Assembly (NCBI GenBank): GCA_000004985.1
Contig: GG738874.1
Strand: one strand, 5' to 3'
Length of the DNA: 64,000 bases
From: Naegleria gruberi
Lineage: Eukaryota
How positions within the stretch are numbered: position 1 is the first letter of the stretch; every line of letters begins with the position of its first letter. The translations under genes were made by a program, and so were the position numbers. The notes under the pieces were generated by a model. The model did no database searches. It was not told the origin of the DNA and saw only the letters and a list, made by a program, of their open reading frames with translations. Shown here piece after piece: positions 3,001-56,958 of the stretch.

Positions 3001-5110
3001 AATTGGAAATATAGATGCTTCAACCAAGATTGCCACCACTTCTCAAAGAGTTTCATTGCATATTGAGGAAATTTATATTTTTGGTATTTTGCAAACAAAT
3101 ATGTATCCCATCAACAATGAGGAATTACTCACCCCTGAACAAATTTTTGAATATCACGAAGGAATGGATCAGTTAACAATTGACTTGGATGAACTTTGGA
3201 ATCGCCTTCTGTATGGTGATATTAATACTGGAGATGCTGTTCTTGTTGGATTATATCCTGAAATAGACAAGATTATTGAGGGTTACAACTGCACCAATAA
3301 TACATCAGCCAATTGTGGAGAAAGTTTGAACGACTTGCTAAACAACCTCATACTCAAAGCAACCAAGATTAATGAAATTTATGTTGCCCTTGATAAGAAT
3401 GAGAGAATAATATTTGATGAATTTTTTTCTACAATTTACATGATTAGCAATAGAGTGACAGATTCAATGCTTAATTTCATTGATATCTATGTCTCCAGTG
3501 TTCAACGTAACGATTCCTATGTTATAGTAATTCTGTTTGGAATAGGTGGCCTTTTCATAATGCCAGTTTTGTTGATCTATATTTTGAACGTTCTTTCTGG
3601 TCAATTGAATGAAATTTACTCATTACGTCTCATTTTGAACTATGTGAACATTGATATACTTGAATCAAAGGAACAACTGAGAAACTTTATTCTTCACAAC
3701 AATCTGTCACGAGAAAAGAAAAAGAAAAATCAAGTTTCTAATAATGTAGAAGAGGACAAGGTCAGAAATATTCTAAATGCCTCTGTCGAAGGTTGTTTAT
3801 TATGTAATCATAATTATGAAATTGAAATATACAATCCAGCAGCTCAAAGGTTTGTTTTTTCTACTTTACTATTTATCTAAAACAAAATTTTAAAGAATGT
3901 TTATGAAACAAGTTAATGAAGTTATTGGATTGCCAATGTGGACTCTATTTGAAAAGAATTGCCAGGATAGAATCAAACTCATCCTTCAAAATCTAACAAA
4001 AACTACTGGTAGTATTGCAAATGGTGAAACAGCAGAACTCGATGGACTAAGAAAAAATGGAACTCTCTTCCCAGCACGTGTTAATATATTTTGGACAATG
4101 TTCGATTCTAAACCAGTATTCACTTGTTTCATTAAGGATGTAACAACAGAGAAAAAGCAAAATGCACTGTTGGCCGAAGAGAAGAAGAGATCTGAAAATC
4201 TTCTCAGAAATATTTTACCAGAATCTGTAGCAAACAAATTGAAGAATGGAGATACATTCATTGCAGAAAAACTACCAGATATTACATGTTTCTTCTCAGA
4301 TATGGTTGGGTTTACTACCATATCTAGTCATTTGAATGCTAATGAGATTGTTAAAATGTTGAGCTCCATAGTCAGTGGATTTGATAAGTTAACAGATAAG
4401 TATGAATTGGAAAAGATTAAAACAATTGGAGACAGTTATTTCTGCGTTGGAGGATTACATCAAGCGAGTGACCACCCTGAGAGAGTAGTTAGATTTGCTA
4501 TTGAAACCTTTGGAGTGGTTAGGGATTATAACAATTCACTATTTAAGGATACAGATCCCCAATCTGTTTCTCAAATAGATATTAGAATTGGTATTAATAC
4601 TGGTTCAGTTGTTGCTGGAGTTATTGGTATTAAGAAGTTTGCATATGTAAGTTAGAAATTTAGTTATTCTATTAATTGATTCCTGTTAATTTAACAAAAT
4701 AGGATTTATGGGGTGATACTATTAATGTTGCTTCGAGAATGGAAAGTAATTCTAAACCTGGCCGAATCCAAGTTTCCAGATCAACCTATGAAAGAGTTCA
4801 CGATCTAGGATTTGAATTTGAGGAAAGATCAATTGAAGTGAAAGGAAAAGGAGTAATGAGGGCCTATCTTATCCACGAAAAACACCACACAAGTGCCACA
4901 TTGACCAACAAGGATATTGAAATAGTTACGGGAGATACACAGTACTTTGCAAGTCCTTTATCTGGTAGTGAATCACCCCTTCCACCAGCCTCTAGCTCCA
5001 ACCCACCCTCAATTAAATCATCACCCAATAATAGTGAATCTAAGAGAGAAGCTATTGATCCAATGGCTTATGATCGTTTAGCAACATTTACTATTGGACA
5101 AAAGGACTAG
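5..5110 (+). CDS. Receptor-type adenylate/guanylate cyclase, copy 1. Multi-TM N-terminal region, extracellular region, TM, PAS domain, class III cyclase catalytic domain. Exons 5..3849, 3896..4646, 4703..5110. Probably 5'-partial at the window edge.
   Basis: A 1291-aa ORF is joined in frame to ORFs 3897..4655 and 4739..5110 by two GT-AG introns: 3850..3895 (gtttgt...aaag) and 4647..4702 (gtaagt...atag). The junctions reproduce the continuous paralog sequence at 42934..47802 (NPAAQR|MF... and KFAY|DLWGDTIN). Cyclase motifs: FFSDMVGFT, KIKTIGDSYF, GDTINVASRMES. PAS motif: NASVEGCLLCNHNYEIEIYNPAAQR. Stop TAG at 5108-5110. Confidence 0.8.
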
Positions 5111-5114
5111 AGCT

Positions 5115-6770
5115 TTATTTCAGTAAACCAGCATATTCATTTCTCTTCTCTAGTCTCAATTTGTAGTACAATCCTGCAATTGTAACACCAACACCACATA
5201 ACAAACCTATTGCCAGAATAACAACAATTGCAATAATTACACCAGTTGAATTATCACTGGCATAGTACTTGTCATAAACTGCTTGTACTTCGCTATTGAC
5301 TTGGTTTCTATATTTTCCAATCTTATTTACATTCTTGTCAGGATAAACTCTATTGGTCAAAAAGATTGTGAATAAATTTCTTTCTGGATCTCCACAAACT
5401 TGAGTACCAGAAAATCCTAAATGCAAGAATGTTTTCTTTGAGAGACTTCCACATGATCCATTTCCTTCAGCATTGGTATCCCTGTAATAATTAATTATTC
5501 GAATTAGTTCAGTTTTTTAACTTACCATCCTAAAGCTCTAGAGCTTTGTTGAGTGTTCTTGACAGATGTAAAAAGTGAGAAAGTTGTTGAATCAATGAAA
5601 TTTTCCCTTCTTCTGAACATTAATTCGTCCATAAAATTGTAAACATCTGGCAATGTTGAAAAAATTCCAGCCTTAAAGTGTTAATTATTTAACATGATTA
5701 TTGTCAACTTACATGTCCTGAAATACCGCCCTGTGCATAACAATTTTCATCAGAAACATATCCCTGAATCAAATCATGATGATAAACCTCGTCAAGCCAA
5801 GCAGGTGGAATATTTACATCATATCTATTTGGAATGTATCCACTATTTGACATTCCAAGTTGTTCCAAAACATGTTTCCTCACAAATGCTTCAAAATAGC
5901 AAGTTTCATGACCAGGAGCATTCAATCCAATTTGTGATACGCAATCACTTCTCAAATCATCATTTGAAATTTGCAACAGATTCATATTCTTTTTAACAAT
6001 TTGTCCAATAATATACATGAGTGAAATCATAGACAAATCACTATAGACATATTTTTCACCTATAATTATTTCTCAGTCACCCAACAAATAATATTTAACA
6101 TACCTATATTGTGAGCCAACTTTTCATTCAACCAAGAATTAAAAATCTTATTCGAACAAGTAAACACTTGTGGTGGATGATAAATCTCCGTAGCACTACA
6201 ATTAAACTCAACAGTATTATAGGTAGGATTTGGATCTGGAGCCAACCCTGAATTGTGCAATAATAAATTCTCAATAGTAATTCCACTCTTTCCATTCACT
6301 CCAAATTCAGGAAAATACTTTACAACACTATCATGCAATGAAATCAAATCCTTCTGATACAACAAGGCAACTGCTGATGTGGTCGAAATTACCTTGGTCA
6401 CCGATGCCATATCAAATTTGGTCGTATTTGTATTCATCACTCGTTGTTCATCATCATTGTAAGTAAACTTTCCAAAGGCTTTAGAATAAATTGGACCATC
6501 CTTATTGGCCACTAAAAGAACAGCACCCGGAAAAGCCTTCTCAGCAATGCCACTATTTATAATATTCTCCAGATTGTCCCAACGATGATCATTTGTTTGA
6601 CCATTCACTTCATTGAAAGTAATAAAAAGTATCAACATCATAATCATCATGAATATTTTCCTTGTCATCATCATGTTGTCGATGGAACGACAAGTGCTGC
6701 AAGAGGATCCGATTCGATTTTTGATGCTTCCTTTTAATGATGAAGAATGCAAGGATGGCAATTTGGGCAT
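5115..6770 (-). CDS. Beta-lactamase-related serine hydrolase (PBP/class C beta-lactamase fold, esterase/LACTB-like) with an N-terminal signal peptide and a C-terminal TM segment. Exons 6770(or 6674)..6104, 6059..5713, 5671..5526, 5481..5115.
   Basis: SxxK motif FDMASVTKV. Y-x-N-like motif GEKYVYSD, recovered across the 44-bp intron 6060..6103 (gtatgt...tatag). YAQGGISGH is followed by intron 5672..5712 (gtaagt...ttaag). A 146-nt middle exon is followed by intron 5482..5525 (gtaagt...ttacag). The final exon carries HLGFSGTQVCGDPE. Exon lengths keep the frame (667/347/146/367 nt). There are two candidate ATGs: 6770 (MPKLP...) and 6674 (MMMTRKIF..., signal-peptide-like). Confidence 0.72.
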
Positions 6771-20929: not shown

Positions 20930-21010
20930 CGCGGTCTACAGGATTCGAACCTGTGCGGGTCGCCCCAATTGATTTCTAGTCAATCACCTTAACCACTCGG
21001 TCAAGACCGC
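20930..21010 (-). tRNA. tRNA-Ser (anticodon AGA)
   Basis: The reverse complement reads GCGGTCTTGACCGAGTGGTTAAGGTGATTGACTAGAAATCAATTGGGGCGACCCGCACAGGTTCGAATCCTGTAGACCGC. Acceptor GCGGTCT/AGACCGC. Anticodon loop CTAGAAA. Long variable arm. Discriminator G. Confidence 0.8.
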
Positions 21011-21104: not shown

Positions 21105-21185
21105 CGCAGACTGCAGGATTCGAACCTACGAAGGTTTCCCCAACAGATTTCAAGTCTGTCGCCTTAACCACTCGGCCAAGTCTGC
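21105..21185 (-). tRNA. tRNA-Ser (anticodon TGA)
   Basis: The reverse complement reads GCAGACTTGGCCGAGTGGTTAAGGCGACAGACTTGAAATCTGTTGGGGAAACCTTCGTAGGTTCGAATCCTGCAGTCTGC. Anticodon loop CTTGAAA. Long variable arm. It lies 95 bp from the Ser-AGA gene in the same orientation. Confidence 0.8.
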
Positions 21186-26254: not shown

Positions 26255-29139
26255 ATGTTGCTTCATCGGGCAAATTCATCACCTCAACTTCTTTCCCCAC
26301 CAACTCCAACCCGCAGATCTTTTAGCATTTCCCAAGCCTCACCTCCAACAATTACCTCTCCTTCACCTCAATCACCAAATAATGTAGAATTTAATACCAA
26401 AAGACGTTCCCTCTCTATTTCTCCACTCTTTACTGATTTGCAAAAAAGTAGGCTTTCAAATCCTAATACCCTACCGCAAACACCAACTTCTCCATCTCAA
26501 TCTCTCAATTCACCAAAACAAAGTGGTGGAGCAGGCACTTTTCCCACATCATTCAAACCTCCAAATGTTGTCAGTGATAAAAAAGGATCTCTTCATATGG
26601 ACCTTGATAAGCTGGATGAGTGGCTTCAACCAGATGATATCCTTCGTCCAACTCTGTCAATACTCTCCCCTAAATCATCACCAACCACAAAACCAACATC
26701 TCCCACACCATTTGTACGTGAAAGATCTAATTCATTCACAAGATTTGAAAACTCTAATTTAGAGAGATTGTGTACCTCTCCAACATTCTCATCTCCAAAG
26801 AATAGCTCACCACTTAATAGAGTTCTTCAACAAGAGGGAGCCTCAACAACTCCGAAAGGAAGAAACAGATCGATGAGTACTATGAGTAACATCTCTGCCT
26901 TTTCAGATTTGAGTTATCGTTCCTCATTGTCTAACCTGTCTATTCAATATTTAGAACCTGAGGATGATGATTTTGAAGAGGAGGAAGAAAGTGAATCGGA
27001 AAACCTTAGTTGTCGTTCAACAAGTAATAGTAATGCGGAAGAACAACAGATTTCATCTTCGGAAAGTTCAGAATCAGAAGATGAGGAAGAAGTGATTCAA
27101 TCTGCCACAACATTTGATCAATTATTTCACAAGAAATTCACCAAATTACCGTCAGCAAACAAAGTCAGTCCTTTGGACAGTCTGTTAAAAACTACTGTGG
27201 ATGATGAATCCTCAACAAACTTTGTTGCATTCAAAGAAATGTTAAAAGCAAAACTTCAAGAGGGAAAAAAAGTTGGCTCTGCTGAAAAGAAGAATGAACA
27301 AGAAATCTTAAAGAAAAAAGGTATTAAATCTCTTTCTTGGCTCAAATCATTGATAGACAAGTTATACACATACAGTCATGATCTCTTTGTCAGCAAGGGA
27401 AATAACATTCAACAGTTGTACACAACTCCAATGATTATTTATTCAATCATGAAAACCAAATTTGTTTATAGTACAGTAACTAACATTGTAAGTTTTTGGA
27501 TGTTCTAATGGAATTTTAACTTTGGAAGAATTGGCATGATATGCTCAAATCTGCCAAAGCATACAGAAAGTATGACTTTGAGGTAGAAACATTTTACAAG
27601 TTTATGAGTGGAGAGTATACATTAGAGACCTTTGTTTGGTTTGTTTGTTCTCGTTCAGTGGCAAACAAGGCTGTTGAGGAGCTGGATAAAAAGCTAGATG
27701 ACAGTTCATTAGGCTCGGAAAATGAAACAATTGCTGAAACATCATCCATAGCACCACCTACAAAATCAGTTGTTTCAGAAATATTGGAAAAGAAGAGAAG
27801 AAAACTGCAAGCACTCGAAAGAAAAGAAGAGAATAGGCACAACATTGAAAAATCAAAGAGTTTCATCACTATGCAAAATGCAATTCATGCTGTCTGTAAT
27901 TTAGTTAACAAAAAGCTCATTCAAAATTTACCTTTTTTAGGTGTCAATGCTGTACATGACAAAGCAATAGATCCATACACATTGAAACATAATGTTGAGA
28001 ATGTGTTGATAAGAAAGTTCGGATTAATTAGATCAAAAGAATTGTAAGTCATCTTTTAATTAGTTTAAAATAATTCCAAATTTAAAAATAGGAGGAATGA
28101 GGAAGCAATATCTTTACCACAATTCTTAGGCTATGTTGTTTCCATTAAAGCAACCAAGCTCGAACTTGTTTTTCATGAATTGAAGAAATATCTTGTGGAT
28201 GAAGATCATGGAATGCTTGACAAATTCTCAGAGACTTCCTCTTCCCCACTTCCAGTAAAACCAAAGCCAAGGCGGATGAGATCAGATAGTGGAATTAATA
28301 TTTCTTCAGTTCTGGAAAAATTAACAGATATTGCTCACAGAATTGAAGATGGTGAGTCAATTGATTCCCCTAGGGAAGAAAAGAGACAACCATTTTCAGA
28401 AGTTTCCAAGAAGGAGGATATTTCAGAAAGTAGTCCTGTCACAGAACATTCTCCATCAAGAACTCCTCCTTCGTTAGAGAAGAGTTTGTCAAACCTTAAT
28501 TTAGCTGACGTTTCTAATTTCCTATGTAATTACAAGGAAAATACTCCAATTGAGGAGCCACCAGTATTGGAGGAAATTATTCAAGATTTCAAACCACCAA
28601 AGGATGAAGAGGATGTAGAAGCTAGTCTCTCCAATGAAGTTGTAAAGATGATCACAATGCTGAGTCAATTAGTAGATGATATGCCAAGAGATGAAGACGG
28701 AATTTCGGCCATTTCAGAAGTTTTTGTTCCTCATGTTGAGCATATTTTGAACTGTCTTCCTGCCTTAGGAAAAATACAAGAGCAATATGCAACTGTTTTG
28801 TTGGAAGACTTACTTTTTAACACGAGAGAATTACTTAATAATTTACCTTTCTTTTCCAACTTTGCTGCCAGTTTGATTTTCAAAATTAATGGATGGTTAG
28901 TTTCAGAATCAAAACAATTCGAATCAAGTTCTCAACCAATGGTTGCTGAACTAATCACCAAGTCAGAAGTGGATATCTCTGAAGATGTTGTAGTAAACGA
29001 AGATTGCGAACCAATCCAAACAGATATCAGATCATCATTTGAAGAACAACTTACAATGAACAAACTCAAAGATCTAATTGAAGATGAGAGTGCAGCTTCA
29101 GAATTAATGGACTTGCTTTCAGAAGTAAGGAATTTATAA
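26255..29139 (+). CDS. Hypothetical Ser/Pro/Thr-rich protein. Exons 26255..27487, 27529..28043, 28092..29139.
   Basis: Three ORFs in different frames are joined by introns 27488..27528 (gtaagt...ggaag) and 28044..28091 (gtaagt...aatag). Both preserve the frame (...STVTNI|NWHDMLKSAKAY... and ...IRSKEL|RNEEAISLPQF...). N-terminus rich in SPxx repeats; acidic C-terminus. No recognised domain. Confidence 0.5.
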
Positions 29140-29144
29140 ATTAT

Positions 29145-31235
29145 TTAAACCTTGTTGAGCAATCCGTGAGTACTTAAATATGGGGTGGATGCAGTCAAAC
29201 TTGTCTTTTTGAGCTCTTCTAATTGTTGAGCTAAATAGTTTTTCTTGGCTAATTTCTTTGCTTGTTTTGAGATTAAAAGCCAATACGAACCTTGCAGAAT
29301 TGCAATGATTGCAAGACTAAGAGTAAAACCTATCCATACTCCCAATAATCCCCAATCTAATACGAAAGCCAAAACACAACCGAAAGGAAAGCCAATAACA
29401 AAGTATCCAATCACACCAATTACAGCACAAACAAATGGCTTGTTTAAACCTCTCAGAATACCACCAAAAATAGCTTGAAAACCATCAACAATAAGGAATA
29501 TCAAACAAATAGGTAAAATTCTAATCGATTCATAAATTAGAGTTGAATCACTGGTATAAATTTTTGGTAAAACAACAATAGTACATGCCACTACAATTAC
29601 TGTTATTACCATAATGAAAGAGGAGAGTATGATATTTGCATGTGAACTGTATCTTACTGATTTGTAATCACCTCTTCCAAAACGATGAGCAATACAAACA
29701 GTACTAGCCATAGATAAACTCATAGGAATCAAATAGGCAAAATTAGAGATGGATAGAACAATACCGTGAACAGACAATTGAGTATTACCTAAAAATCCAG
29801 CAATAAAAGTTGAAAGCTCACTTCCCCAAATTTCAGAACTCATCATTATGGAACCAGGAAAAGAAATTTTCAAATGATCAAATATTCCCTTTAACGACTT
29901 TTCTTTTTTGAATGGAGTTACGTTGATAGTGGTTGGGAGTTTTTCATCTTGAGGCAATTCACCTGTTTTGGATGTGGTAGCATAGATAATCTCTTTAAGT
30001 GAGAAGTTTTTGAACATTTGTCTCATTTCCTTCTTACAAATGATTACAAATACCATCAAGATGAAAAAACCAATGAACATGAGCCATCTAGTGGACGAGG
30101 TAGCAATGGCACTTCCATAAAAACCAATACCCTTAAAATCACCGACTCCACCCACAAGGAAGAAGCTCATCAAGACATTATACACAACGCATACAATACA
30201 AACTGCAATACTAGGCCAATAAATCTTTTGAGCGACCATAAACGAATACAAACTTCTGGAATAAATGAAAGGGAACAAACCTGGAATAAGATATCTCATA
30301 AATGTTATGGTGAGTTGAGTAACAACTTGTCTACTAATTAGACCTTCTGGTGTTGTTTCAACCAACTCGAATAGCATTGCAATATAACCAGAGAAGAACA
30401 TTATAATGGAGACAGGTATCATGAATAGAGTTTGAAGAAGGAGACTTCTAATCCATTCAGCAATAATTAAATTACCATCCTTGTTACCAAAAGCTTTAGA
30501 GATCAACGGCTCTTGACCATTACCAATCAATCCAAGAACTATAATACTTAATCCATTGAATAGTGAAGTAGCTAAGGTCAAAGAAGCTAGGTATTCAGAT
30601 GTTGTGGGATAAAGTGAGGTAGAGTTGATATTCAGCGCATAATCAAATCCGTAGAGTTCTGTAAGTGCACCTGGTTGACTAAAATCTACTTGTGTAACAG
30701 TATTGTTCAGAGTGGCAAGTCCTGAACGATTTGAGTTAATGTGTCCAACAACAATCATATCCTCAAGACCGAGAATAAGAATGCACAAATTGAACACTAA
30801 AAAAGGAATACAAGTAAATATGAGTGGCAACAATTCCCTTCTCACATTGTGGAAATAATCCATTCTGTTCTTGTTTCTGAGGCGTGAATTGTTACTGAGT
30901 TGAAGATCATCACTTCCAATGCTTGATTTTCTGCTCTCACTAGAAATGTCAGAAGAGCTTTGCTTGGTAGTTGATGATGAACAGTGATCATCAACACTGA
31001 TATTGCACTCATCAATATCAGCATAGTGAATGGTCAATGATTTGTTCGAACCAGGATCAATGTAATCATACCATGTAATATCAAATACCATGGATAGATC
31101 TTCAGCATTGAGAGCAATTTGTTGATCTTGTTGGGAAGTGCTGGTAGTGGCAGTAGAAGTGGTGATCTTGATTTGTTTATCATCATCACTAACTTCCTCA
31201 ACACTTAATAATGTGAATGACTTGTTTTGATTCAT
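29145..31235 (-). CDS. MATE (multidrug and toxic compound extrusion) family transporter with a long Ser-rich N-terminal extension
   Basis: A 696-aa ORF with a true ATG at 31235. About 12 predicted TM helices arranged as two 6-TM repeats. Glycine-rich loop motifs typical of MatE (e.g. ...LGLIGNGQEPLISKAFGNKDG..., ...MASTVCIAHRFGRGDY...). Confidence 0.78.
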   Translation of the reverse strand: MNQNKSFTLLSVEEVSDDDKQIKITTSTATTSTSQQDQQIALNAEDLSMVFDITWYDYIDPGSNKSLTIHYADIDECNISVDDHCSSSTTKQSSSDISSESRKSSIGSDDLQLSNNSRLRNKNRMDYFHNVRRELLPLIFTCIPFLVFNLCILILGLEDMIVVGHINSNRSGLATLNNTVTQVDFSQPGALTELYGFDYALNINSTSLYPTTSEYLASLTLATSLFNGLSIIVLGLIGNGQEPLISKAFGNKDGNLIIAEWIRSLLLQTLFMIPVSIIMFFSGYIAMLFELVETTPEGLISRQVVTQLTITFMRYLIPGLFPFIYSRSLYSFMVAQKIYWPSIAVCIVCVVYNVLMSFFLVGGVGDFKGIGFYGSAIATSSTRWLMFIGFFILMVFVIICKKEMRQMFKNFSLKEIIYATTSKTGELPQDEKLPTTINVTPFKKEKSLKGIFDHLKISFPGSIMMSSEIWGSELSTFIAGFLGNTQLSVHGIVLSISNFAYLIPMSLSMASTVCIAHRFGRGDYKSVRYSSHANIILSSFIMVITVIVVACTIVVLPKIYTSDSTLIYESIRILPICLIFLIVDGFQAIFGGILRGLNKPFVCAVIGVIGYFVIGFPFGCVLAFVLDWGLLGVWIGFTLSLAIIAILQGSYWLLISKQAKKLAKKNYLAQQLEELKKTSLTASTPYLSTHGLLNKV

Positions 31236-32162
31236 ATTTGTTTTCTCACCAAAAGAGAATGAATAGGTGCACTTTAGAATAATCTTGATATAACTAATTG
31301 ATGAATATCAACAAAAATTAGAATTAATGCTTTTTCCAATACCAAATTATAATACAATTGACTTGTGGTAATTGCGAGTTGACTATTGAAAACACAATTT
31401 TGTTTACTGTTATTATTGGTAACAATAAATTTTGAATAGTAATAACTACTCTGGTCGTTGCAATGAAGAGATTTTGATTTAGTTGAAGAAGAATATAATG
31501 CTCCCAGCATTACTTTTCTATAATATTGTAATATTGAGTTTAAATACTATATTCTGTTATGAGAATATACTAGTTGTGATAGTATTTGTTGGTGGTTTGC
31601 AGTTGAAGTTGTTTAGTGTTTGCAGTTGAGTTGTTGAGGAAATGCAGTTTTTTTCAATCTAGTCTGTTCACCAATCTACTCGTCTTTATAAGTAACTAAA
31701 TATAGATGCTCTCCTAAAGGTCGAAAATGGTTGATTTATAATTGGTACATTCTAAAGTTAAAAGTTGGTCCGTATTTGGAAGTTTGTGTAATTAACATGT
31801 ATTTAAAACAGGTAGGTTAATTCAGAAGAGTATGTGATGCATTCGTGTTGTCCTTAGGTTTCTTATTACAATATTGTTAAAAAGTATAATATTCCTTAGT
31901 AGGGAAGACAGATATGTGGTCTCTTGGTTTTCATGACTGCATGAACAGTTCTTTTGGTCGTACAAAGAGGCAAATAATTTGTCACTGACAATCGTTGAAG
32001 TGTTTCACAACCCATCACCACCACCTGCATGAATGAGTGCACCACATTAAGCTTGTGTGAAAAATTTCAAATTGTTATTATCTTTTTTAACAGTGATGGT
32101 AATAATACACTTTTTATCATGTGAGTAACACTAGAGTGGTGGCATTGAAAATGTACTATTAT

Positions 32163-34825: not shown

Positions 34826-36991
34826 ATGTTCAACCAAGAGTTTTCATTTCCAGCAAAGAAAGTACCATCATCAACTCATGAATCTCCGAGTATTGACAAT
34901 GAGCAACAGCAACCATTCGAGAAACCTGTAAGGATGGAAAAACCACCCATTCAAAATGATATTGAAGATTATGGCCTTATTGGAAATTGCCACACAGCTT
35001 GCCTTGTTGGTATGAGAGGATCCATCGATTATTGTTGCTTTCCACAATTCGATTCTCCTCCAATCTTTTCCAAACTCATTAGTAATCAACCTGCAGAGAC
35101 TTGTGGATTCTTTTCCATTCATCCAATGCGTATTGAAGATACCACGAATAAGCAACATTACTTTCCCGATTCTAATGTATTGGTCACCAAGTTCTTGTTG
35201 AGTGAAGGTGTTGGTCAATTGGTTGATTTGATGCCTATTTGGTCTGATAGTGGTGTTCATCCACAACAAACCGAAACGATGAATGAATCATCAACAAACT
35301 GCTCAACAATTGAAACTTGTTGTCCTATTACAAAACTCTTCAATTTGTATCACGGCTTCCATAGACAATTAGTGAAAACCAATAGTTCACAGTATAGAAA
35401 TTGCATTATTAGAAGGTTGGAAATTGTGCATGGAAAGATTGAGTTTCAAATTGTTTGTAAACCAATATTCAAATATGGAGCAGAGAAACCTCATGTTGAG
35501 ATATGCTCAAACAAGAAGAGTGTCGTCTTTTCATGTTCTGACCAGGCCATTATTCTTGAATCTAATAGACCATGCTTCGAAAGCATAGATGAAAAGGGAG
35601 CAGTCATTGGTTTGATTGAAATGAGTGAAATTGATCCAGAGAAGAGTTGTGTATTCTGTCTGAGATATTTAGAACAGGGAGATATGAAGGGAAATCATGA
35701 TTGTCAGACCTTATTGGATGAAATGTGCATTAATGAAGATTTGATGCTTATCACCAATGATCTCACTATTAAGACCATTAATTATTGGCAAAAGTACATT
35801 TGTAATAGTAATTACCAAGGAATTTTCAGAGAGATGGTCAATAGATCACTTCTAGCTCTCAAACTTTTAATGTTCAACGAGACAGGAGCTATAATTTCAT
35901 CTCCAACAACATCACTTCCCAAGTCAATTGGTGGTAATAGAAATTATGATTATAGATTTTGCTGGATAAGAGATGCCACCTTCTCAGTTAATGCTTTCCT
36001 CAAGACTGGAATGATTGAAGATGCTGCAAAAATTGTTGGATTTATTGAAAAGACATTTGATTCTGAAAAATCAGATTCCAAACCACTTTCCAATATTTAC
36101 ACAATTATGGGAAAGAAATTGAGCGGTTCCATTCAAGAAATCTCCAAGTTTAGTGGTTTCAAGCAAAGTATGCCTGTACGTGTTGGAAACATGGCTTCCA
36201 ATGCAATAGAATTGGATATTTATGGTGAACTGTTGGATTCAATCTATAACTTTGACATTGTCAGACCAATTTCTTACAACTTTTGGATTAAGTTGAAAGA
36301 TGTAGTTGAATTTGTAATTGAAAATTGGAGAAATCCGGATCATTCCATTTGGGAAAAGAGCAATAATAAGTGTCACTTTGTATATTCCAAAGTCATGTCA
36401 TGGTGTTGTTTGGACAGAGCATTGAGATTGGCTGATAGAAGAAGTTTCCCTGCTCCAAATGATAGATGGCTCAAAATAAGAAATGAAATCTATGAGGATG
36501 TAATGAAGAATGGATACAATGAAAAGATGAACACCTTTGTACAATCCTATGGTTCTGAAGTTCTTGATGTTTCTCTCCTTATTATGCCAATTATTGATTT
36601 TCTTCCAATTTCAGATCCAAGAATGGTCAACACTATCAATGCAATCAATAAGAAACCAAAAGAAGGTGGATTAGTTACCTCATCCCTTGTCTACAGAACC
36701 AGTGATCATCACAAGAGTGAAAAGTCAGCCACAGAGGGCACTTATAATATGCTCACTTTTTGGCTATTGAGAGTTTTGGCCATGATGAGTGATTATGACA
36801 ATAACAAGCTCAGACAAGCCCAACTCATGTTCGAACAAATATCCACCTTTAGTAATCATGTCGATCTCTATAGTGAATTGACCTCCTTTAGTGGTCTCAT
36901 GTTGGGTAATTTTATCCATTCCAATACTCATAGCTCACTCATTGTAGCAGCTGTTGAATTGGCCAAAAGAATTGACAATACAAACCTCTAA
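34826..36991 (+). CDS. Glycoside hydrolase family 15 (glucoamylase / bacterial-type trehalase-like), intronless
   Basis: A 721-aa continuous ORF. The N-terminal domain carries DYGLIGNCHTACLVGMRGSIDYCCFPQFDSPPIF. The catalytic (alpha/alpha)6 region carries NYDYRFCWIRDATFSVNAFLKTGMIEDAAK, which fits the GH15 WxRD signature. Confidence 0.78.
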   Translation: MFNQEFSFPAKKVPSSTHESPSIDNEQQQPFEKPVRMEKPPIQNDIEDYGLIGNCHTACLVGMRGSIDYCCFPQFDSPPIFSKLISNQPAETCGFFSIHPMRIEDTTNKQHYFPDSNVLVTKFLLSEGVGQLVDLMPIWSDSGVHPQQTETMNESSTNCSTIETCCPITKLFNLYHGFHRQLVKTNSSQYRNCIIRRLEIVHGKIEFQIVCKPIFKYGAEKPHVEICSNKKSVVFSCSDQAIILESNRPCFESIDEKGAVIGLIEMSEIDPEKSCVFCLRYLEQGDMKGNHDCQTLLDEMCINEDLMLITNDLTIKTINYWQKYICNSNYQGIFREMVNRSLLALKLLMFNETGAIISSPTTSLPKSIGGNRNYDYRFCWIRDATFSVNAFLKTGMIEDAAKIVGFIEKTFDSEKSDSKPLSNIYTIMGKKLSGSIQEISKFSGFKQSMPVRVGNMASNAIELDIYGELLDSIYNFDIVRPISYNFWIKLKDVVEFVIENWRNPDHSIWEKSNNKCHFVYSKVMSWCCLDRALRLADRRSFPAPNDRWLKIRNEIYEDVMKNGYNEKMNTFVQSYGSEVLDVSLLIMPIIDFLPISDPRMVNTINAINKKPKEGGLVTSSLVYRTSDHHKSEKSATEGTYNMLTFWLLRVLAMMSDYDNNKLRQAQLMFEQISTFSNHVDLYSELTSFSGLMLGNFIHSNTHSSLIVAAVELAKRIDNTNL

Positions 36992-37103
36992 CTACTCTCA
37001 AAAACGATTCCCAACTCTATTGAAAATTCAAGATCTCAACATCACCAGACCTTCAAAGTTAGTTTCTAAAAAGTTGTACAATAAAAAAATCCTTAGAAAA
37101 AAA

Positions 37104-38777
37104 ATGATTAATGGAAATATTACTCTCCGTCGTCATCAGAGACATTTATTGGAGGAGGGCGTTAATTTGGTCCCTGATCCTAACTTGATGACTGTTCCAC
37201 CTGGAGGAGCTGGAGGTGAAAGTTTTAGTGAGGCAATGCCAACAATTTTATTAACCCCACCAAAGAGAGAGCCAATGCCTTTGAGAACACCTAAATCGGT
37301 ATCACCTGCATTGTCTAATGCATCAACTTCATCATTGTTTTTATCGGTGAATGCAACACCTCAGGGAAATAATTTTGCCTTTCCATCACCAAAAGGATTT
37401 AATAATTTGGATACCCCTAATAATTTGTTTTTAAGAAAACCTTCATCAGCCATGCAATCAAAGTCTGTTTTTGAGGGTCTTCCAGGATTTGTAAGTATTC
37501 CTTATTAAATTATTAGTATTTATTTATTTGGAATACAACAGAAAAAATGTAATCAAGAACAGTTTGAACATCATGCTCCAAAGGATGAAAAACAACAAAA
37601 GAAGAATCCAACTAAATATTCTGTAAGTTTGTTGTTGGATCTTTGAGACTAATTTTTATGGAATTAGAAAGATATTGAGGAGAGGTCAATTAATGCAGCC
37701 AAATCGTATAGATTTTTTGAGGATTCAATTTTGAGAAAACCTTCTTTAACTATTGGGCAATACAAGAGAAATAGCGTCCTGTATGAAGCTGATTTGAAGG
37801 ATTACAAAAGATTGAATATGGTTGCTGCCATGTCTGCATTGGAAGAAACTCCAATTGAAAAATATAATCGCTTAAAACAGGAAATTGAGGATTTTATTGG
37901 AGAAATGGGAAGAATGTCAGTGGAAAATCCAAAAGTAAAACTTGTTGGAGAAAATGTAGCAGTGTACTCTGAAATATTGGAGCAATCAAAAGAATTGAGG
38001 CAAAAGTTGGAAGTTGCAAAGGATACCAATACTTGCTGCTTTTTAGAATTGAATAACAAGGAGGATGAGTCAACAAATCAAATTCTTAGCCAAATTCAAT
38101 CCGAACTGGATAAGGCATTGGAAAATCAGTTAAATACTCTTGTTTCTCCTCAACAACAAACTCCAAAACTTCAAAAACCAAAGAAGGAAACTATTTCTCA
38201 GGACTCTTCAAGAGTGTTAAGATTGGAAAGAAGATTGGCTCACTTGGAGAAATTAGTTGGAACTGAGGATGAAAGGAGAAATGTCCTGCTTAATGATAAA
38301 AACTCCTCTGCCACTACGAAAAAGTATGCAAGTCTTGAAACAGCCATCAACATTTTGGAAAAGAAGGTCAACACAATTGATCCTTTCTTTATGCAATCGT
38401 TAGAGTCTAGAATTAAGAATATTTTGAAGGATTTGGAAAATATCTCCACTCTTGAAGTTGTAAACTCTTCATCAATAAGCTTTAATGGAACAAAAATTGA
38501 AAATTTATATCAAAGGGTCAGAAAGTGGGATGAGTTAACAAAACAAGTTCCTATGATTGTTTCAAGACTGCAAACATTGAAAATTGTTCATGATGAAGCA
38601 ATATATTTTGCAGGAACTGTCTCAAAATTGAAACAACAACAAGAGGAACTTTCTAGATTGTTGGATGGGAATGAAAAATTACTCACTAACATTTCCACTA
38701 ATTTTGATGATAATTTAGTGACTATTAATAAGAATATTAAATTAATCCAAACCAGGATTGAGAATATCAAAAAGTAA
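37104..38777 (+). CDS. DCTN2: Dynactin subunit 2 (p50/dynamitin). Exons 37104..37490, 37542..37622, 37668..38777.
   Basis: The C-terminal half aligns to metazoan dynamitin: LERRLAHLEKLVGTEDERRN, LYQRVRKWDELTKQVPMIVSRLQTLKIVHDEAIYFAGTVSKL, NISTNFDDNLVTINKNIKLIQTRIENIKK. Introns 37491..37541 (gtaagt...acag) and 37623..37667 (gtaagt...aattag) are in phase 0. The start ATG at 37104 is the first in frame after the upstream gene's stop. Confidence 0.75.
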
Positions 38778-38778
38778 T

Positions 38779-39579
38779 CTATAACATGATTACTATCAAC
38801 ATTGAAATCAATGTCATGACTGTAACAGAAATATTAATTACTGCTACGCTCGAAACTTGTGTACAAGCACTAACAGGAGTGGCACTATAATTGATTACAT
38901 CTCCGCTTTGTCCAACCAATCCTGCACTATTCTTCACACAGAAATACTTGAATTTCTTATCCAAATCAGTATTCAAGAAAAAGACACCCTGGTAAAACCA
39001 GTTGAAAGGATTGTAACCTCTGTCTCTGTTCCAACATCTATAAAGATGAGAATTTCCAAACTACAAATTACTTACGAATCAGTATATTTCATACATTCCG
39101 AATAACAGACAGGCAAGGCAGTATTATTAGAAGGATAACAGGAAGGAAAGTTTCTCAAACAAGAAAACCTTTTCCAAGATGTGGTGCAAGACTCGTCATC
39201 TGGTAAAAATTTAGAATTTTTCTTATAATTAGATAACAATGAAGCATCAACACTTGAATAATTGCTTGGTAGACAGCTATTTGTGGTGATTAGTTGATTG
39301 ATAGTATAAATATTGATTAATACTCTATTGATGTGATTAAATTATTGTAACATACACATATTCAGAGTCTGGTAAATGTTTGTAACACATGCCGAGTCCG
39401 GATTTATATTCACTTGATGCTTTGACGTCAGAAACGAGAAGACATTGACCATTGCAAGTTGATGTCGTCACTTGAGAATGAACATTTATAATCATCAATA
39501 AAAGAATCACAAAAGCAGTGAGAAGTTTGGGCACTGAAGTTAGAGAATGCAGTATCATCCTTTTTTTTTGATTTTTCAT
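38779..39579 (-). CDS. Small secreted Cys-rich protein with a signal peptide and a C-terminal GPI-like hydrophobic tail. The Cys spacing resembles a Frizzled-type CRD. Exons 39579..39356, 39276..39076, 39037..38779.
   Basis: ATG at 39579. Signal peptide MKNQKKRMILHSLTSVPKLLTAFVILLLMIINVHS. Introns 39277..39355 (gtatgt...aaatag) and 39038..39075 (gtaagt...tttatag). The spliced core reads CTTSWKRFSCLRNFPSCYPSNNTALPVCYSECMKYTDSC, which fits W..F.C..FP.C....P.C...C......C. The C-terminus VSSVAVINISVTVMTLISMLIVIML looks like a GPI-anchor signal. Confidence 0.55.
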
Positions 39580-41223: not shown

Positions 41224-41973
41224 ATGTCCACTTCATCAAAGCTCGTCGTTATTACTGGTGCTTCCTCTGGTATTGGAGAAGCTGCAGCTGAACTTTTGCA
41301 TTCAAAGGGTTATAAATTGTTGCTCCTTGCTCGTCGTTTGGAACGTATGCAGGAATTTGTAAAGCAACATTCCATGACTGAACAAGATACTCTCATTGCC
41401 CAATGTGATGTTACTCAAGTTGATGATATTAAGAAGGCCATTGATCATGCTCAAGATCATTTCAAATTACCAGTCGATTGTTTAATTAATAATGCAGGTG
41501 TCATGTATTTGCAACAATTGGCCGATCAATCCTTACAAAGACAAGAAACCATGATCTCCACCAATGTAAATGGTATTTTGAATGGTATTAATGTTGTTCT
41601 CAAATCAATGCTCGAACGTCAAACTGGTACCATTATTAACATTAGTTCAATTGCTGGTAAGAAGAGTTTTGGAAATCACGTTGCTTATTGTGGTACTAAA
41701 TTTGCTGTTCACGGATTGACAGAAGCTTTGAGATCTGAAGTTTCTGGATCCAAGGTCAGGGTCATTGTCATAGCTCCCGGAGTCACCCAAACTGAGTTAT
41801 TGGGTCACAACGACAAGGATCAAGTAGATCCATACGAGGATTGGAAAAAGACCATGTCTTTGGGTGTCTTGAAATCTGAAGATGTTGCTGCCAGTATTTT
41901 GTTTGCCTATGAAGCTCCTCCTCATGTTTGTATCAGAGAAATTGCCTTGGCTCCAACTGAACAACGCGATTAA
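41224..41973 (+). CDS. Short-chain dehydrogenase/reductase (classical SDR, NADP-dependent; serine/3-hydroxyacid dehydrogenase-like)
   Basis: Rossmann motif TGASSGIG. NNAG motif present. Catalytic S...YxxxK as ISSIAG...YCGTKFAV. 249 aa, intronless. Confidence 0.85.
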   Translation: MSTSSKLVVITGASSGIGEAAAELLHSKGYKLLLLARRLERMQEFVKQHSMTEQDTLIAQCDVTQVDDIKKAIDHAQDHFKLPVDCLINNAGVMYLQQLADQSLQRQETMISTNVNGILNGINVVLKSMLERQTGTIINISSIAGKKSFGNHVAYCGTKFAVHGLTEALRSEVSGSKVRVIVIAPGVTQTELLGHNDKDQVDPYEDWKKTMSLGVLKSEDVAASILFAYEAPPHVCIREIALAPTEQRD

Positions 41974-42290: not shown

Positions 42291-45200
42291 ATGAATCCAA
42301 CCCCATCCTCATCATCGATGACACCTCACAATATTCATCATACAGCCAATAACAGTGGTGGTGGAAGTAGTAGCACACCAATAACATCAATTGGTGGAGG
42401 AGGTAATAATAATGGTGTTTTTCCATTTCTGATGAGTAGTAATTCAAATTCAAGTTACAGCAACAGCAATACGAATAATAATTGTACAAAGAATGGCCAA
42501 CAACAACAGGGAGTAGTGGTGACGAATAGTGGACAATTTCACTCCCTATCCAGTATTAATTCAATTCATTTGACTCAAAATCTTCCTCAACAAACACCTC
42601 TTTCTCCCCGAATAACAAATAATAGTAATCATCGCGAACAATTGCAATTAACAGCTGCTCTTCATACCAGTACAGTATTTTCACCATCAAGTGTTACCGA
42701 GAAGACTCATGATGGTGACAATTCTTCGATATTTAATGGATCTGCCTCGAGCACAGTTCTCTCAAAATCAGCATTCAACACTGTTGTCAATAAGGTAAAA
42801 AATCATTTCATGAGTTTTACCTTATTCATGCAAGATAATGAAAAGAAACAGAGCAAAATGGATAGAATTATGATGTTTGGAATGTATATGTATATGATAT
42901 GGGTAGGAATATGGATTTCAACATTGAGTCCTTATGATTATCATTATGGAGAGTGGGGATCATGGTTCTTTGCAGTTGTGTTATGTGGTTGTTTTCCTGT
43001 CGTGTCCAATGAGTTTTGCCATGTCCACCTTTATAGATTGCAAGTGGATCAATATGGAAGGGTTTTCTCAAACCTCCTCTACACGAATGATTCTGAATAG
43101 ATTCAATACATTTTTTCAGGAGGAGAGATATTGCTATACGAGTACCAATATTGTCTTTCTAGTGATATTTCTGGTCACACATTTTCTGTTATCACTAATT
43201 TGTGCCTTCTCCACAACTGTCCTCTCCAATTCCCACCCACTCTCAAAAACTGTTTTTGTTGCAGATGCTAGTTTTGTTCCTGCCTTAATGTTTATGAGTA
43301 ACTTGATGGAGATTTTATTTCACTTTATTATTCCATCTAATTATGCATTTGTGAGATCGATCATTCACATAATCATGGCCTTAATATTTATAATATTCCT
43401 CTTTAAAAACATTACATATATGAGGAGAACAGACAATTCGATAATATCAGGATTTGGATTTGCCAAGTTGGGAGCAAGTGTTGGAAAGCTGATATCATTC
43501 TTTGTTAATAGAGATAATGTCAATAATACTCAAAATTACAACACGTATGGAATTATCATGACATGTGTGACAATAGGATTGGTAATATTTGGGTTTATTA
43601 TAGGGTTCATTGTAATGGAAATTTACACCAGATATATTGTTTATACCATACGTAAGGTATTGGAGAATATTATTATGCTAGCTGATAGATCTCAGTACTA
43701 CGAGCAAAGTAATGATGATTTGGATATGCAAGATAATCAAGAGAGTCAAATCATTGTTTATGAGAAAATAATTGAGAGGGAAGCACCAATGTTATACCAC
43801 AAAATTGACTCTGAAAAGAGAATGAAATTTCTGGTATATTATTTGAACTTTTGTATGCATAGGAATGTCGATGAGTTGATGAATAGCTCTCACCCCTCCG
43901 CCCATAAGAAGGTTTCCAGAATTGAATCAATTGGAATGACAGATACACATGTCGCTTTATGCTTTATCAAGGGTCTTTTTGGAGGTTCTACTTCGATTGT
44001 TACAAATGTCGGCCTCATGTTAACTTGTAGCTCACTTGTTGCTTACTACTGGCCTTCTTCAGCAGAGTCAGTTAACACAACATTATTTGCAAATAGCTTG
44101 TTAAGAAAAGCTCTCAAAAAGCAGCCATCATTTATTCAAAGATTCTTGATAGGTATCAAGATTAAGGAAATTGAGGTGAACGCTGATGAGAAAACTCGAC
44201 TCATGTTTGAGGCGAAACATCTGGTGTCAAAGTTAGAAAGAAGACAACAAGAGTTGAAAGCTCTTCATAGAAATTTCTGGAAAGAACTAACCCATGAAGT
44301 GGTCAATTATGAAAAAATTGAATCAATCATATTAAGGGCAAGTGAATTATCAAGTAAATGCGAAACTCACTACGAAAACCTCAGGCTTACATACCGTCAT
44401 GATAAATCACTATTGAGATCACATGCCCAATTCCTTGAGACCTGTAGATTTGATCCAGATATTGCTCACGAAATGTACAACGAAGCAAGCCTTATGGAGG
44501 AAGAAGATTCTGCCAACCATGCAATGAAATCCAAAAGTAACTTGATGGCAACGGTCAATATTGCAGAAAGAAGGAAAATGTGGAGGGATCAAGCAAAAAA
44601 CAGACCTAACAATAGAGGAATGGCTAATGGAAATGTGAAAGTGGTTCCAGTGAATGGAAATAAGGATATGGTAAGAGGTGATTCCACAAGCTCCATCGAG
44701 GGAAAAGAGGGACAAGAAGAATATGGACACCACTTTGAAATGATAGACCCAAGAACATCGCTCAGTTATTCAGATCAGTTACCATTCGATGGTGTTGAAA
44801 ACTTTGGAAATGTGCGAAAGGAAACAATATTTAGAACTTCACTTTCTGTACCTCACAGACACACTTTTCAACTTGGTGGATTTATTGCTTTCTTTATCTT
44901 GTCTGTATGTCTTTTAATATCTTCATCCATTCTGAGTGGTCTGATATCCTATGAGGTTACGGATGATTTACAAATTGTAAAGACAGGATGCATTCCAACT
45001 TCCTCTATAGTTCAAATGATTACAAAATTGAGATCCCTCAAGTTTGCTAATAGTCTTTACTCTCAAAAATCTTGGCCCACTGAAATGACATCGCTTGGGT
45101 TTAAAAACTTGACCGATTTCAATACCAAGATGTGGACAGATTTTAAACAATATTATTCATATTTTATTGCTCTAAGAGATATGAGTATGAAAGATAGAGT

Positions 45201-47802
45201 CCTAACACCAACCATGTATGATGAGTTCCATGAAAGATACTACCCAATGCTGACACCTGAAATATCATCTGGAAGCGAAATTATATTATACAATTCTACC
45301 AAGGCAGTCAATATTTCAATTGCTGATATTACCAACTTGGTAATCAAGTACTCTGAAGACTTGATAAGAACTCGTGATTCAGATCATACGTTTACTAATT
45401 ATGGCTTTATGTTCTTTTATGATAACCATGATTACATTACCAAAGCTTTTAGCCAATTTTGCTCTGTTCTTATTGATGAATCCAAACATGAAGCTTCACA
45501 GGTAGATATCGCTTATATGGCCTTCCTTATTGTAGCCCTTGTGGTTTATCTTCTCTACGGAACTGGTTATATCATTTACACTCACATTTCCCTTAAATTT
45601 GTCAAGTCACAAATCAAACTCATTGAGCATGAAATTTCTAAAAACATAGCTGGTCGTTTATTCCATGATTTAGAAAAGAAAGTGAGTGATGACGTAACTG
45701 TTCGTCTTCCAAAATCCAAGTTATTGAGACCAAAGAATATCATTATCATGCTGAGTATTTCATTAATGATTTTAATGGCCGTATGTGCTGGATTGCTTTA
45801 CTTTGGAAATAGATACAATGCAGAAAAGATTGCTTCCTCTTTTATTTCATTTAGACATGCCACAAACAGTATGTTTTATGTCCAGAGAATAGCCTTTGCT
45901 GTCACTGAACAATTTACAAATAAGGTTTTGGGAGGTTCATTGCAATCAAGTGAAGAACTATATTTAATGAACCAAGATTTAGAGGAGAATGTTCAAAGTC
46001 TGAGAGAGAACTGGAATTTGTGTTTATACGGTGACTCAAAAGAAGTTTATACCTCCATAATGAATAGAGGAATTTTAGGCCTGTTTTCTGAAGTAGATAA
46101 TCTAATAATTGGAGAATCTAACTGTACATTCTCAGAATTCAGGTATTCATATAATGTTTCTTCAAAATGTTTCCTTAGTTTGAATTCTCTCCTCACCGAT
46201 TACATGTCTTTGTCTACTCAGTTCAACAGTGTGTTAAAAGTCAAAAATATCAATAGCAGTGACATGGACATTGTGGATCAGTATGCTCAAGCTACATTCC
46301 TCTCCAATATGATAACAATGGATGTAGTCGAGATTTCCTCTGTAATTTCAGAAAATTACTCTAACCCAGCTTTTGAAATATTGATCACTTTCTCTATTGT
46401 TGGATCTGTGTCCATTTTGCTATTCTCGTACTTGATACATTTGTATCTTACAAAATATTGGAATTCCATTCAAGAAATGAGATTATATTTCAATTATATC
46501 AGTGTGGAAACACTTGATTCAAATGAAGCATTGAGAAATTATTGTATCCACCATTTGGTTAATGACACCTTCTTGCTAAAGAGGAGAAATATGAACAATA
46601 CATCCCTTCAAGATTCCAAAGTGAGAAGCTTATTGAACGCTTCAGTAGATGGTGCAGTCATGTGTTCTGGGCAAACCTGTGATATTGATATTTTCAATCC
46701 TGCTGCTCAAAGAATGTTTGGTTACAATCAAACTGAAACTGTGGGAAGGCCACTTTTTGATTTGTTTGATTCGTTGAGTCAGCAATCTATTAGGAAAATG
46801 GTATCAGATATGCTTCAAGGGGCTTCTGAAGCTCAATCAAAAGGAGATGCTCTCGATGCTGAATGTGTAAGAAAGAATCAAACAACTTTCCCTGCAAGAG
46901 CCAATATTTTCCTAACCAAACATGATAACAAACCAATCATTACCATATTTATCAAGGATATAACATCAGAGAAGAAACATTTAGCCCTCATTGCTGAAGA
47001 AAAGAAGCACTCTGAAGAACTGTTATTGAACATTTTGCCTGATGCTGTGGCTTCTAAACTCAAATCTGGTGAAACATTTATTGCAGAAAAGTTTGCTGAT
47101 ATCACTTGCTTCTTTTCTGACATGGTAAACTTTACAAGAATTAGTTCTGACATGAATCCTTCTGAGCTAGTTTTGATGTTGAATTTTATTGTAAATGGTT
47201 TTGATGAATTGATAACCAAGTATAATTTAGAAAAGATCAAGACCATTGGTGATGCTTATTTTGCTGTTGGAGGTCTTCATGGTCTGAATGCACAATCAGA
47301 TCACCCCGAAAGAACTCTTAAATTTGCAATTGATACCTACCAAGTTGTCTCCAATTATAATTCCAAGAGTGGAAAACCAATGAGAGAACAAATTAACATT
47401 AGAATTGGAATGCACACTGGAAGTGTTGTGGCAGGAGTTATTGGAAAACTCAAGTTCGCTTACGATTTATGGGGAGATACTATCAACATGGCATCAAGAA
47501 TGGAATCGAATTCAGTGAATGGAAGGATTCAAATTAGTAGAACGACCTATGAAAGAGTGTATGATCTTGGTTTTTCATTTGAAGAGAGAACGATCAATGT
47601 TAAGGGAAAGGGAGAAACTTTAGCTTATTTGTTAGATTCCAAACATCATACCTCAGCTATTGTTAATCATGAGGTGATTGAAGACAGTGAGGAGATTGAA
47701 TCGGTTGTCTTACCTCCAAGGGACACTCTTGAAGTTATTCCACTGAGAGAATCAGCTTCCAATCACACAGACCTTGTAGATTTAGCTCCCTCCACTCCTT
47801 AA
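42291..47802 (+). CDS. Receptor-type adenylate/guanylate cyclase, copy 2 (paralog of 5..5110). N/S/Q-rich N-terminus, multi-TM region, PAS domain, cyclase domain. No introns at the positions where copy 1 has them. There is an apparent +1 frameshift near 42950.
   Basis: A 1622-aa ORF (42934..47802) with PAS motif NASVDGAVMCSGQTCDIDIFNPAAQRMFGY and cyclase motifs FFSDMVNFT, KIKTIGDAYF, GDTINMASRMES. About 65% identity to copy 1 across the catalytic domain. The upstream ORF 42291..43100 (frame 0, true ATG) ends in TM-like sequence (MIWVGIWIST) that resembles copy 1's MIGVSSICIT. It overlaps the main ORF (frame 1) around 42934-42960. Confidence 0.75.
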
Positions 47803-56765: not shown

Positions 56766-56886
56766 AAATAAATAGCTGCCAGATTCGAAAAACCAGTTAA
56801 TATGGGTCTGTAGTAAACACAGGTTATTCTAATTTTTATCTAAATATAATTTAACATAATGAGTATATTTTCAATATGAATAAGAT

Positions 56887-56958
56887 TCCCGTGTAGTCCA
56901 ATGGCTAGGATACCTGGCTTTCACCCAGGAGGTCCGGGTTCAATTCCCGGCATGGGAG
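56887..56958 (+). tRNA. tRNA-Glu (anticodon TTC)
   Basis: Sequence TCCCGTGTAGTCCAATGGCTAGGATACCTGGCTTTCACCCAGGAGGTCCGGGTTCAATTCCCGGCATGGGAG. Acceptor TCCCGTG/CATGGGA. Anticodon stem CCTGG/CCAGG with loop CTTTCAC. T-arm GGGTTCAATTCCC. Confidence 0.8.

Follow-up and report, generated by a model that had tools for sequence, protein, structure and literature searches.

The convergent dynamitin and Frizzled-like genes of Naegleria gruberi, with stop codons one nucleotide apart: a probable product of passive compaction

Background

Overlapping transcription reportedly occurs in compacted eukaryotic genomes such as those of microsporidia and nucleomorphs, where, as intergenic DNA is lost, the ends of transcripts come to lie in adjacent genes, a side effect of compaction rather than a designed mechanism. 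Naegleria gruberi, a free-living amoeboflagellate, has a genome that, at about 41 Mb, is much larger than those of microsporidia or nucleomorphs. A second comparison is offered by Saccharomyces cerevisiae, in which convergent protein-coding genes lie on opposite strands with their 3' ends facing one another; the published accounts put more than 20% of yeast genes (645 pairs) in convergent arrangements with overlapping 3' untranslated regions (UTRs), and describe the formation of duplexes between them as needing short spacing (PMC3900390, PMC6993858). The third, that of the ultrashort UTRs and dual-use stop codons of Giardia and N. gruberi, concerns our own organism and the very machinery that forms its 3' ends. 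For N. gruberi, direct RNA sequencing put the median length of the 3' UTR at 39 nt; the principal signal, AAUAAA, precedes the cleavage site by 15-20 nt, with UGUA upstream and a U-rich sequence downstream. About 11-13% of stop codons overlap AAUAAA, and at these sites the median UTR is 22 nt (PMC11529991).

The locus described here lies in a stretch of 64,000 nucleotides of contig GG738874.1 (assembly GCA_000004985.1), which was analysed as a whole and is called the window below. A plus-strand gene for dynamitin (DCTN2, dynactin p50) and a minus-strand gene for a protein with a Frizzled-like (Fz-like) CRD converge so closely that one base separates their stop codons. As in the yeast pairs, these are protein genes on opposite strands with facing 3' ends, and by its geometry the dynamitin/Fz-like pair belongs with tail-to-tail, 3'-overlapping pairs. 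It differs from them in having essentially no intergenic DNA (1 nt), so that each UTR would lie inside the coding exon of the partner; furthermore, mature yeast mRNAs are known to be complementary, while the Naegleria pair is known from geometry and we infer the overlap of its RNAs. The likeness to microsporidia and nucleomorphs is that here too transcript ends appear to have been pushed into the neighbouring gene as intergenic DNA was lost, but the window still has spacers of 80-281 nt at other convergent pairs, and tight and ordinary spacing therefore coexist. With overlapping coding genes the locus shares the closest possible packing, except that here the coding sequences do not overlap. 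Our preferred reading, to which we assign a probability of about 0.75, is that a conserved convergent pair has undergone passive compaction, with a 3' antisense overlap that would be obligatory and probably incidental.

Results and discussion

The window belongs to the NEG-M strain of N. gruberi: a GH15 open reading frame (ORF) at 34826-36991 is identical to XP_002676041.1/EFC43297.1 and a short-chain dehydrogenase ORF at 41224-41973 to XP_002676044.1, both being single-exon, while a MatE ORF at 29145-31307 has 100% identity to a third N. gruberi protein. A ciliate-type code, under which these stop codons would not be stops, was rejected on two grounds: ORFs of 700-1600 codons stay open when read with the standard code, and ORFs of the window match N. 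gruberi proteins exactly. Read directly, the plus strand at 38766-38787 is ATC AAA AAG TAA T CTA TAA CAT. The dynamitin ORF (plus strand, 37668/37731..38777) closes with TAA at 38775-38777, the Fz-like ORF (minus strand) closes with TAG at 38779-38781 (CTA on the plus strand), and the T at 38778 is the only base between them. An earlier note on this DNA had reported convergent dynactin p50 and Cys-rich genes with stops 1 nt apart, and its coordinates are exact, the bases at 38770-38785 being AAAAG TAA T CTA TAAC.

Exon 1 of the dynamitin gene (37104..37490, plus strand) is a continuous ORF ending at a GTAAGT donor at 37491; exon 2 (37542..37622) contributes 27 codons, and the terminal exon runs from 37668 to 38777, stop included. 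The introns, at 37491-37541 and 37623-37667, are both of the form GTAAGT...AG, and the spliced product aligns unbroken, over both junctions, to the annotated dynamitins of N. lovaniensis and N. fowleri. Exon 1 encodes an S/P-rich N-terminal extension and then the conserved SKSVFEGLPGF, with in-frame candidate starts at ATG 37104, 37188, 37236, 37275 and 37452. The start can be placed with less certainty than the stop; it is probably ATG 37104, which would give a protein of 525 aa, since a comparable S/P-rich extension precedes SKSLFEGLPGF in the orthologues of N. lovaniensis and N. fowleri and the frame is open upstream here. The identification of this gene as dynactin p50 is confirmed by Pfam: the terminal ORF scores 156 bits (E 2.4e-45) for Dynamitin (PF04912), whose cut-off is 31.8, over profile positions 88-395 of 396, and the match ends at residue 345 of the 348 in that ORF. 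Identity to Naegleria proteins bearing PF04912 is 43-46%. Its final residues, IQTRIENIKK, align with LQERI(K/R)NLEKK in the two orthologues, the N. gruberi end being shorter by one residue.

The Fz-like gene begins on the minus strand at ATG 39579 with an exon (39356..39579) that encodes a signal peptide; a 79-nt intron (39355-39277, GTATGT..TAG) is followed by exon 2 (39076..39276), a 38-nt intron (39075-39038, GTAAGT..TAG) and the terminal exon (38779..39037), the last being supported by alignment to N. lovaniensis and Willaertia magna and encoding the conserved CWNRDRGYNPFNWFYQGVFF block and a hydrophobic C-terminal tail. The model gives 227 aa with an N-terminal hydrophobic signal, 12 cysteines and the hydrophobic tail, an architecture shared by the orthologues of N. 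lovaniensis (56% identity) and W. magna (43%), to which the alignment is continuous over both splice junctions. From the DVI(N/D)Y motif to the stop there are 40 residues in N. gruberi and 42 in N. lovaniensis. The protein is hydrophobic only at residues ~15-35 and 203-227, the tail reaching the final residue, and the small residues that precede it (SACTQVSS) form a pattern kept in the N. lovaniensis and W. magna orthologues. Thus the claim that the minus-strand gene encodes a Cys-rich secreted protein holds: its product carries 12 cysteines and a signal peptide, and the hydrophobic tail closes the C-terminus.

Several observations bear on a candidate Frizzled-type fold. Pfam Fz (PF01392) gives 26.3 bits, below its cut-off of 32.1 (E 1.2e-5), over residues 94-146 only, while the N. 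lovaniensis orthologue has a precomputed PF01392 match and bears the UniRef name 'FZ domain-containing protein'. In an AlphaFold (AF2) model the core comprises residues 41-140 at pLDDT 78-94, and in a Foldseek search of the PDB the best 36 matches are all Frizzled-type CRDs (Fz8, MuSK, Smoothened, sFRP3, ROR2), with E values of at least 0.076, probabilities of at most 0.97 and TM scores of about 0.3 when normalised to the query and about 0.5 when normalised to the target. When the PDB was searched with a sequence profile built from the Fz-like alignment, no significant match came out. A Cys-rich, probably GPI-anchored, Frizzled-like CRD protein is a fair label for what is, formally, a candidate member of the Pfam family with an anchor predicted from sequence.

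Both members of the pair are real genes with correctly placed stops, as seen from the Pfam match that extends to the profile end, the ends of the orthologues and the canonical introns. A mis-called terminal exon, which the earlier note had named as the finding that would overturn its claim, was looked for and is absent: the orthologues in N. lovaniensis, N. fowleri and W. magna end within 1-2 residues of the N. gruberi proteins, and neither stop is therefore mis-called. A related explanation is that the arrangement is an artefact, whether of a mis-called terminal exon, of a decaying pseudogene or of an assembly deletion that removed the true spacer. One observation might be taken to favour it: a collection of 5.8 billion proteins returned no N. 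gruberi entry for dynamitin or for the Fz-like gene, although the neighbouring GH15, short-chain dehydrogenase and MatE proteins are present there at 100% identity. Set against this are two intact frames, canonical GT..AG introns, end-to-end alignment with orthologues, the conservation of 12 cysteines and two other, independent pairs in the window with gaps of 4-5 nt, which make a single local assembly error unnecessary; we regard an artefact as extremely unlikely. The absence of both genes from a collection in which their neighbours are present suggests that they may be missing from the public gene set.

The order GH15, dynamitin and, facing it, the Fz-like gene is kept in N. lovaniensis and N. 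fowleri, for the latter also in an independent Logan assembly. The stop-to-stop spacer measures 67 nt in N. lovaniensis, 73 nt in N. fowleri and 1 nt in N. gruberi, while the N. gruberi proteins are shorter by only 1 (dynamitin) and 2 (Fz-like) residues; since the protein ends shift so little, the difference between species lies in the non-coding spacer itself. The contrast among three species fits either a loss in N. gruberi or a gain in the other lineage. Under passive compaction, a spacer of about 70 nt like that of the sister species would have been reduced to 1 nt while the protein ends moved by no more than 1-2 residues. Outside the genus the partner changes. In W. magna the Fz-like orthologue has another convergent neighbour, an alpha/beta-hydrolase gene with its stop 8 nt away, and a second convergent pair at that locus has a 6-nt gap; W. 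magna and an environmental heterolobosean-like contig together supply gaps of 6, 8 and 11 nt between other gene partners, and an environmental MatE homologue (50% identity, a candidate orthologue) abuts a PGI gene. Because relatives show tight gaps with unrelated partners, the tightness looks genome-wide rather than specific to this pair. An exact 24-mer spanning the junction had no match among metagenome contigs, and a profile scan of these returned a single distant relative (24% identity, on a 1.3-kb contig), which is uninformative.

These comparisons bear on the possibility that the overlap is functional, and that dynamitin and the Fz-like gene regulate one another reciprocally through their 3' ends, either by transcriptional interference and collision or by mRNA-mRNA duplexes that feed RNA decay or RNAi. 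Dynamitin and the CRD protein might then be in opposite states, for example in the amoeba as against the flagellate or the cyst. Such coupling would draw on the sense-antisense complementarity that the 1-nt geometry forces, and the convergent orientation is indeed kept in three Naegleria species; in the published yeast work, mRNA duplexes are described specifically for convergent genes with short spacing, and UTR overlap as a mediator of interference (PMC6993858, PMC3900390). However, the partner is not kept beyond Naegleria, where the W. magna Fz-like gene abuts the unrelated hydrolase gene and the MatE homologue the PGI gene, and within Naegleria the length of the spacer is not conserved (1 against 67-73 nt). 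We consider functional coupling unlikely, and a dedicated regulatory device appears less likely than passive compaction.

How unusual the arrangement is can be judged from the rest of the window. Pairs were sought among stop-to-stop ORFs of at least 80 codons after the removal of shadow ORFs, with coding potential scored by a codon model derived from long ORFs and with several partners confirmed by Pfam. Eight reliable convergent pairs emerged, spaced by 4, 109, 5, 1, 80, 281, 278 and 135 nt. Besides the dynamitin/Fz-like pair, the tight ones are a cyclase-family and a beta-lactamase-like gene (5108..5117; stops TAG at 5108-5110 and 5115-5117, 4 nt apart), and a 356-aa ORF and the MatE transporter (29137..29147; stops TAA at 29137-29139 and 29145-29147, 5 nt apart). 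Among called genes in relatives, 8 pairs have gaps of 67, 73, 328, 6, 165, 8, 212 and 11 nt. The rarity implied by the earlier note is thus unsupported: three of the window's eight pairs have gaps of 1-5 nt, and the near-abutting arrangement is common in the N. gruberi genome. The dynamitin/Fz-like pair is one case of a common state in these genomes and is unremarkable by itself.

An exponential model of spacing, which is an arbitrary null applied to a small sample, gives P ~0.09-0.13 for one gap of 1 nt or less among 8 pairs, against P ~0.002-0.007, under the same arbitrary null and from the same small sample, for three of 8 gaps of 5 nt or less. Near-abutting pairs are therefore enriched as a class, while the single 1-nt case is not. 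No overlap of coding sequence was seen, 0 of 16 convergent pairs (8 in the window, 8 in relatives) having a negative gap, as would be expected if the stop codons set a hard limit; together these values suggest that spacers shrink down to the stop codons and then halt.

The excess of near-abutting pairs over the exponential expectation also counts in favour of functional coupling, and, with the inverted repeat described below, it could point beyond passive compaction to a more organised arrangement. It might be argued that convergent stops some 1-11 nt apart are not the tail of a spacing distribution but a distinct, selectively maintained heterolobosean class, although we think this distinctly unlikely. 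Were it true, each last coding exon would double as the 3' UTR, poly(A) region and terminator of its partner, expression of both genes would be coupled through the obligatory complementarity of their RNAs, and the palindrome over the stops (38773-38794) might help some pairs.

Passive compaction, which we prefer, has a direct consequence for 3'-end formation. With no non-coding DNA left between the genes, cleavage and polyadenylation must fall inside the partner's last exon, and any UTR longer than 1 nt must be antisense to the stop and coding sequence of the partner. Given a 1-nt gap and a median UTR of 39 nt, the mRNAs should run antisense into the last exon of the partner. The 3' ends of the two mRNAs would then be complementary, probably over some tens of nucleotides, and two UTRs of median length would give roughly 80 nt of complementarity. 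The proposal that each 3' UTR is antisense to the other coding sequence is accordingly supported by the gap and the published UTR lengths, as a prediction from both. The same gap argues for the proposed overlap of the UTRs themselves; it does not require that the polyadenylation signals overlap, as had also been claimed, but only that the transcribed regions do.

A search around both stops for AAUAAA, AUUAAA and common variants, together with UGUA, found no AAUAAA or AUUAAA within ~170 nt downstream of either stop, on both strands. The only AUUAAA near the junction, at 38737-38742, lies inside the dynamitin coding sequence 33 nt upstream of its stop and would therefore direct cleavage about 15 nt before the stop, within the coding sequence. 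The absence of these hexamers was rejected as a special sign, many other gene ends in the window being also without them. Neither AAUAAA nor AUUAAA overlaps the dynamitin or the Fz-like stop, and so the pair is not an example of dual use; that solution is employed at the 5110/5115 pair, where the minus-strand stop of the beta-lactamase-like gene ending at 5115 sits inside AAUAAA, and not at 38775-38781. The W. magna Fz-like gene has an AAUAAA within its coding sequence, 9 nt ahead of the stop. Tight pairs hence appear to solve the 3'-end problem differently, with a stop inside AAUAAA in one case, AAUAAA before the stop in another and neither of these here. Under passive compaction, deletions would be tolerated right up to the stops because Naegleria 3'-end signals are short and A/U-rich and can sit in coding sequence.

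The same signals raise the question of whether the UTRs could be close to zero in length, each transcript being cleaved right after its stop under the direction of signals inside its own coding sequence, with hardly any overlap. Ultrashort 3' UTRs and stops that double as part of the signal are known from N. gruberi (PMC11529991), and the positions of AAUAAA in the W. magna Fz-like gene and in the gene ending at 5115 are of the kind that this explanation needs. However, even dual-use sites have UTRs with a median of 22 nt (PMC11529991), neither stop of the pair overlaps an AAUAAA or has one shortly before it, and the sole AUUAAA would cut before the stop. Near-zero UTRs are therefore very unlikely at this locus.

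The junction also carries a perfect 7-bp inverted repeat, AGTAATC-N8-GATTACT (38773..38794), which spans both stop codons and is present in the centroid fold of both strands. A hairpin could form from it in either transcript, although its significance is doubtful: a 141-nt plus-strand segment folds better than 200 of 200 shuffles (z -3.26), while the minus strand of the junction segment does not fold better than shuffles (z -0.85). The window has 1.2 inverted repeats of this sort per kb, which together account for 1.9% of its length; the 21 other gene ends checked had none of the same kind. A role as a bidirectional terminator was set aside on these grounds, namely the coverage of the repeats, their absence from the other ends and the folding of one strand only. 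The repeat is probably there by chance, and we record it as unexplained. Rfam gave no match at the junction, its matches in the window being four tRNAs elsewhere.

Taken alone, the pair matters little beyond showing how far a eukaryotic genome can squeeze convergent genes without touching coding sequence. For annotation, gene callers that reserve space for UTRs or penalise abutting models could drop genes of this kind. Should the excess of near-zero gaps extend to the whole genome, Naegleria, being free-living, would be convenient for the study of poly(A) signals placed in antisense coding sequence, and would also suit the question of whether forced 3' complementarity regulates. A 2024 preprint that works from predicted proteomes places dynactin among the classes that Naegleria lacks, and an earlier genome-level survey recorded a single dynactin2 in Excavata and, for N. 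gruberi, neither dynactin1 nor dynactin3. Despite the listing in the preprint, the dynamitin gene is, to judge from its sequence, unambiguously present in N. gruberi.

Convergent gene pairs with nearly abutting stop codons

The closely opposed stop codons of the dynamitin gene (DCTN2/p50, plus strand, 38775-38777) and the Fz-like gene, which encodes a cysteine-rich protein with a Frizzled-like domain (minus strand, 38779-38781), have counterparts elsewhere in the window. A cyclase-family gene and a beta-lactamase-like gene converge at 5108-5117 with 4 nt between their stops, and a 356-aa ORF meets a MatE transporter gene at 29137-29147 with 5 nt between them; with the dynamitin/Fz-like pair included, there are three near-abutting cases among the window's eight reliable convergent pairs. 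At the first of these junctions an AAUAAA motif (5115-5120) contains the minus-strand stop, such that the same bases serve as stop codon and poly(A) signal.

Similarly tight arrangements are found in relatives, with other partners. In Willaertia magna (locus L004) the Fz-like orthologue converges on a hydrolase gene 8 nt away, which is not its partner in N. gruberi; the orthologue's own coding sequence includes an AAUAAA 9 nt upstream of its stop codon, and the stop of the hydrolase gene itself overlaps an AAUAAA. The same locus has a second pair with a gap of 6 nt, and the junctions of both pairs (6740-6790 and 290-320) are short A/T palindromes, TAAATATTTA and TAAATTTA. On an environmental contig (ERZ27315067 k141_1385141, 5837-5849), a MatE homologue with 50% identity to that of the window is convergent with a PGI gene, the called gene ends lying 11 nt apart; in N. 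gruberi the convergent partner of MatE is another gene.

An inverted repeat at the dynamitin/Fz-like junction

Both stop codons are spanned by a perfect 7-bp inverted repeat, AGTAATC-N8-GATTACT (38773-38794), and a 141-nt fold at this site gave z-scores of -3.26 on the plus strand and -0.85 on the minus strand. Nothing comparable was found at 21 other gene ends. The repeat is probably a product of chance.

Structure and annotation of the two genes

Upstream of the conserved N-terminal motif of dynamitin the frame is open for 166 codons between position 36954, where the ORF begins, and the ATG at 37452 (region 36954-37508). This stretch is rich in serine and proline, and a similar N-terminal extension is annotated in the dynamitins of N. 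lovaniensis and N. fowleri. The probable start is the ATG at 37104, only 112 nt downstream of the stop (36991) of the adjoining glycoside hydrolase gene, GH15. One spliceosomal intron of the Fz-like gene is very short, at 38 nt (39038-39075, GTAAGT...TAG); it is confirmed by an alignment to orthologues that continues unbroken over the junction.

A search of a large protein collection returned no N. gruberi protein for either dynamitin (37104-38777) or the Fz-like gene (38779-39579), while adjoining N. gruberi proteins were found there at 100% identity; the public gene set may lack both genes. Dynactin is given as a class missing from Naegleria in a 2024 preprint (10.1101/2024.01.08.573270).

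Other genes in the window

Four tRNA genes are present: tRNA-Val-AAC (15826-15899), tRNA-Ser-AGA (20930-21010) and tRNA-Ser-TGA (21105-21185), the latter two in tandem about 95 nt apart, and tRNA-Glu-TTC (56886-56959), which lies between two convergent genes (56765/57044), within their 278-nt spacer. Two large genes encode adenylate/guanylate cyclase catalytic domains (2-5110 and 42928-47802), the second together with PAS and TPR-like domains, in agreement with the large cyclase family reported from Naegleria.
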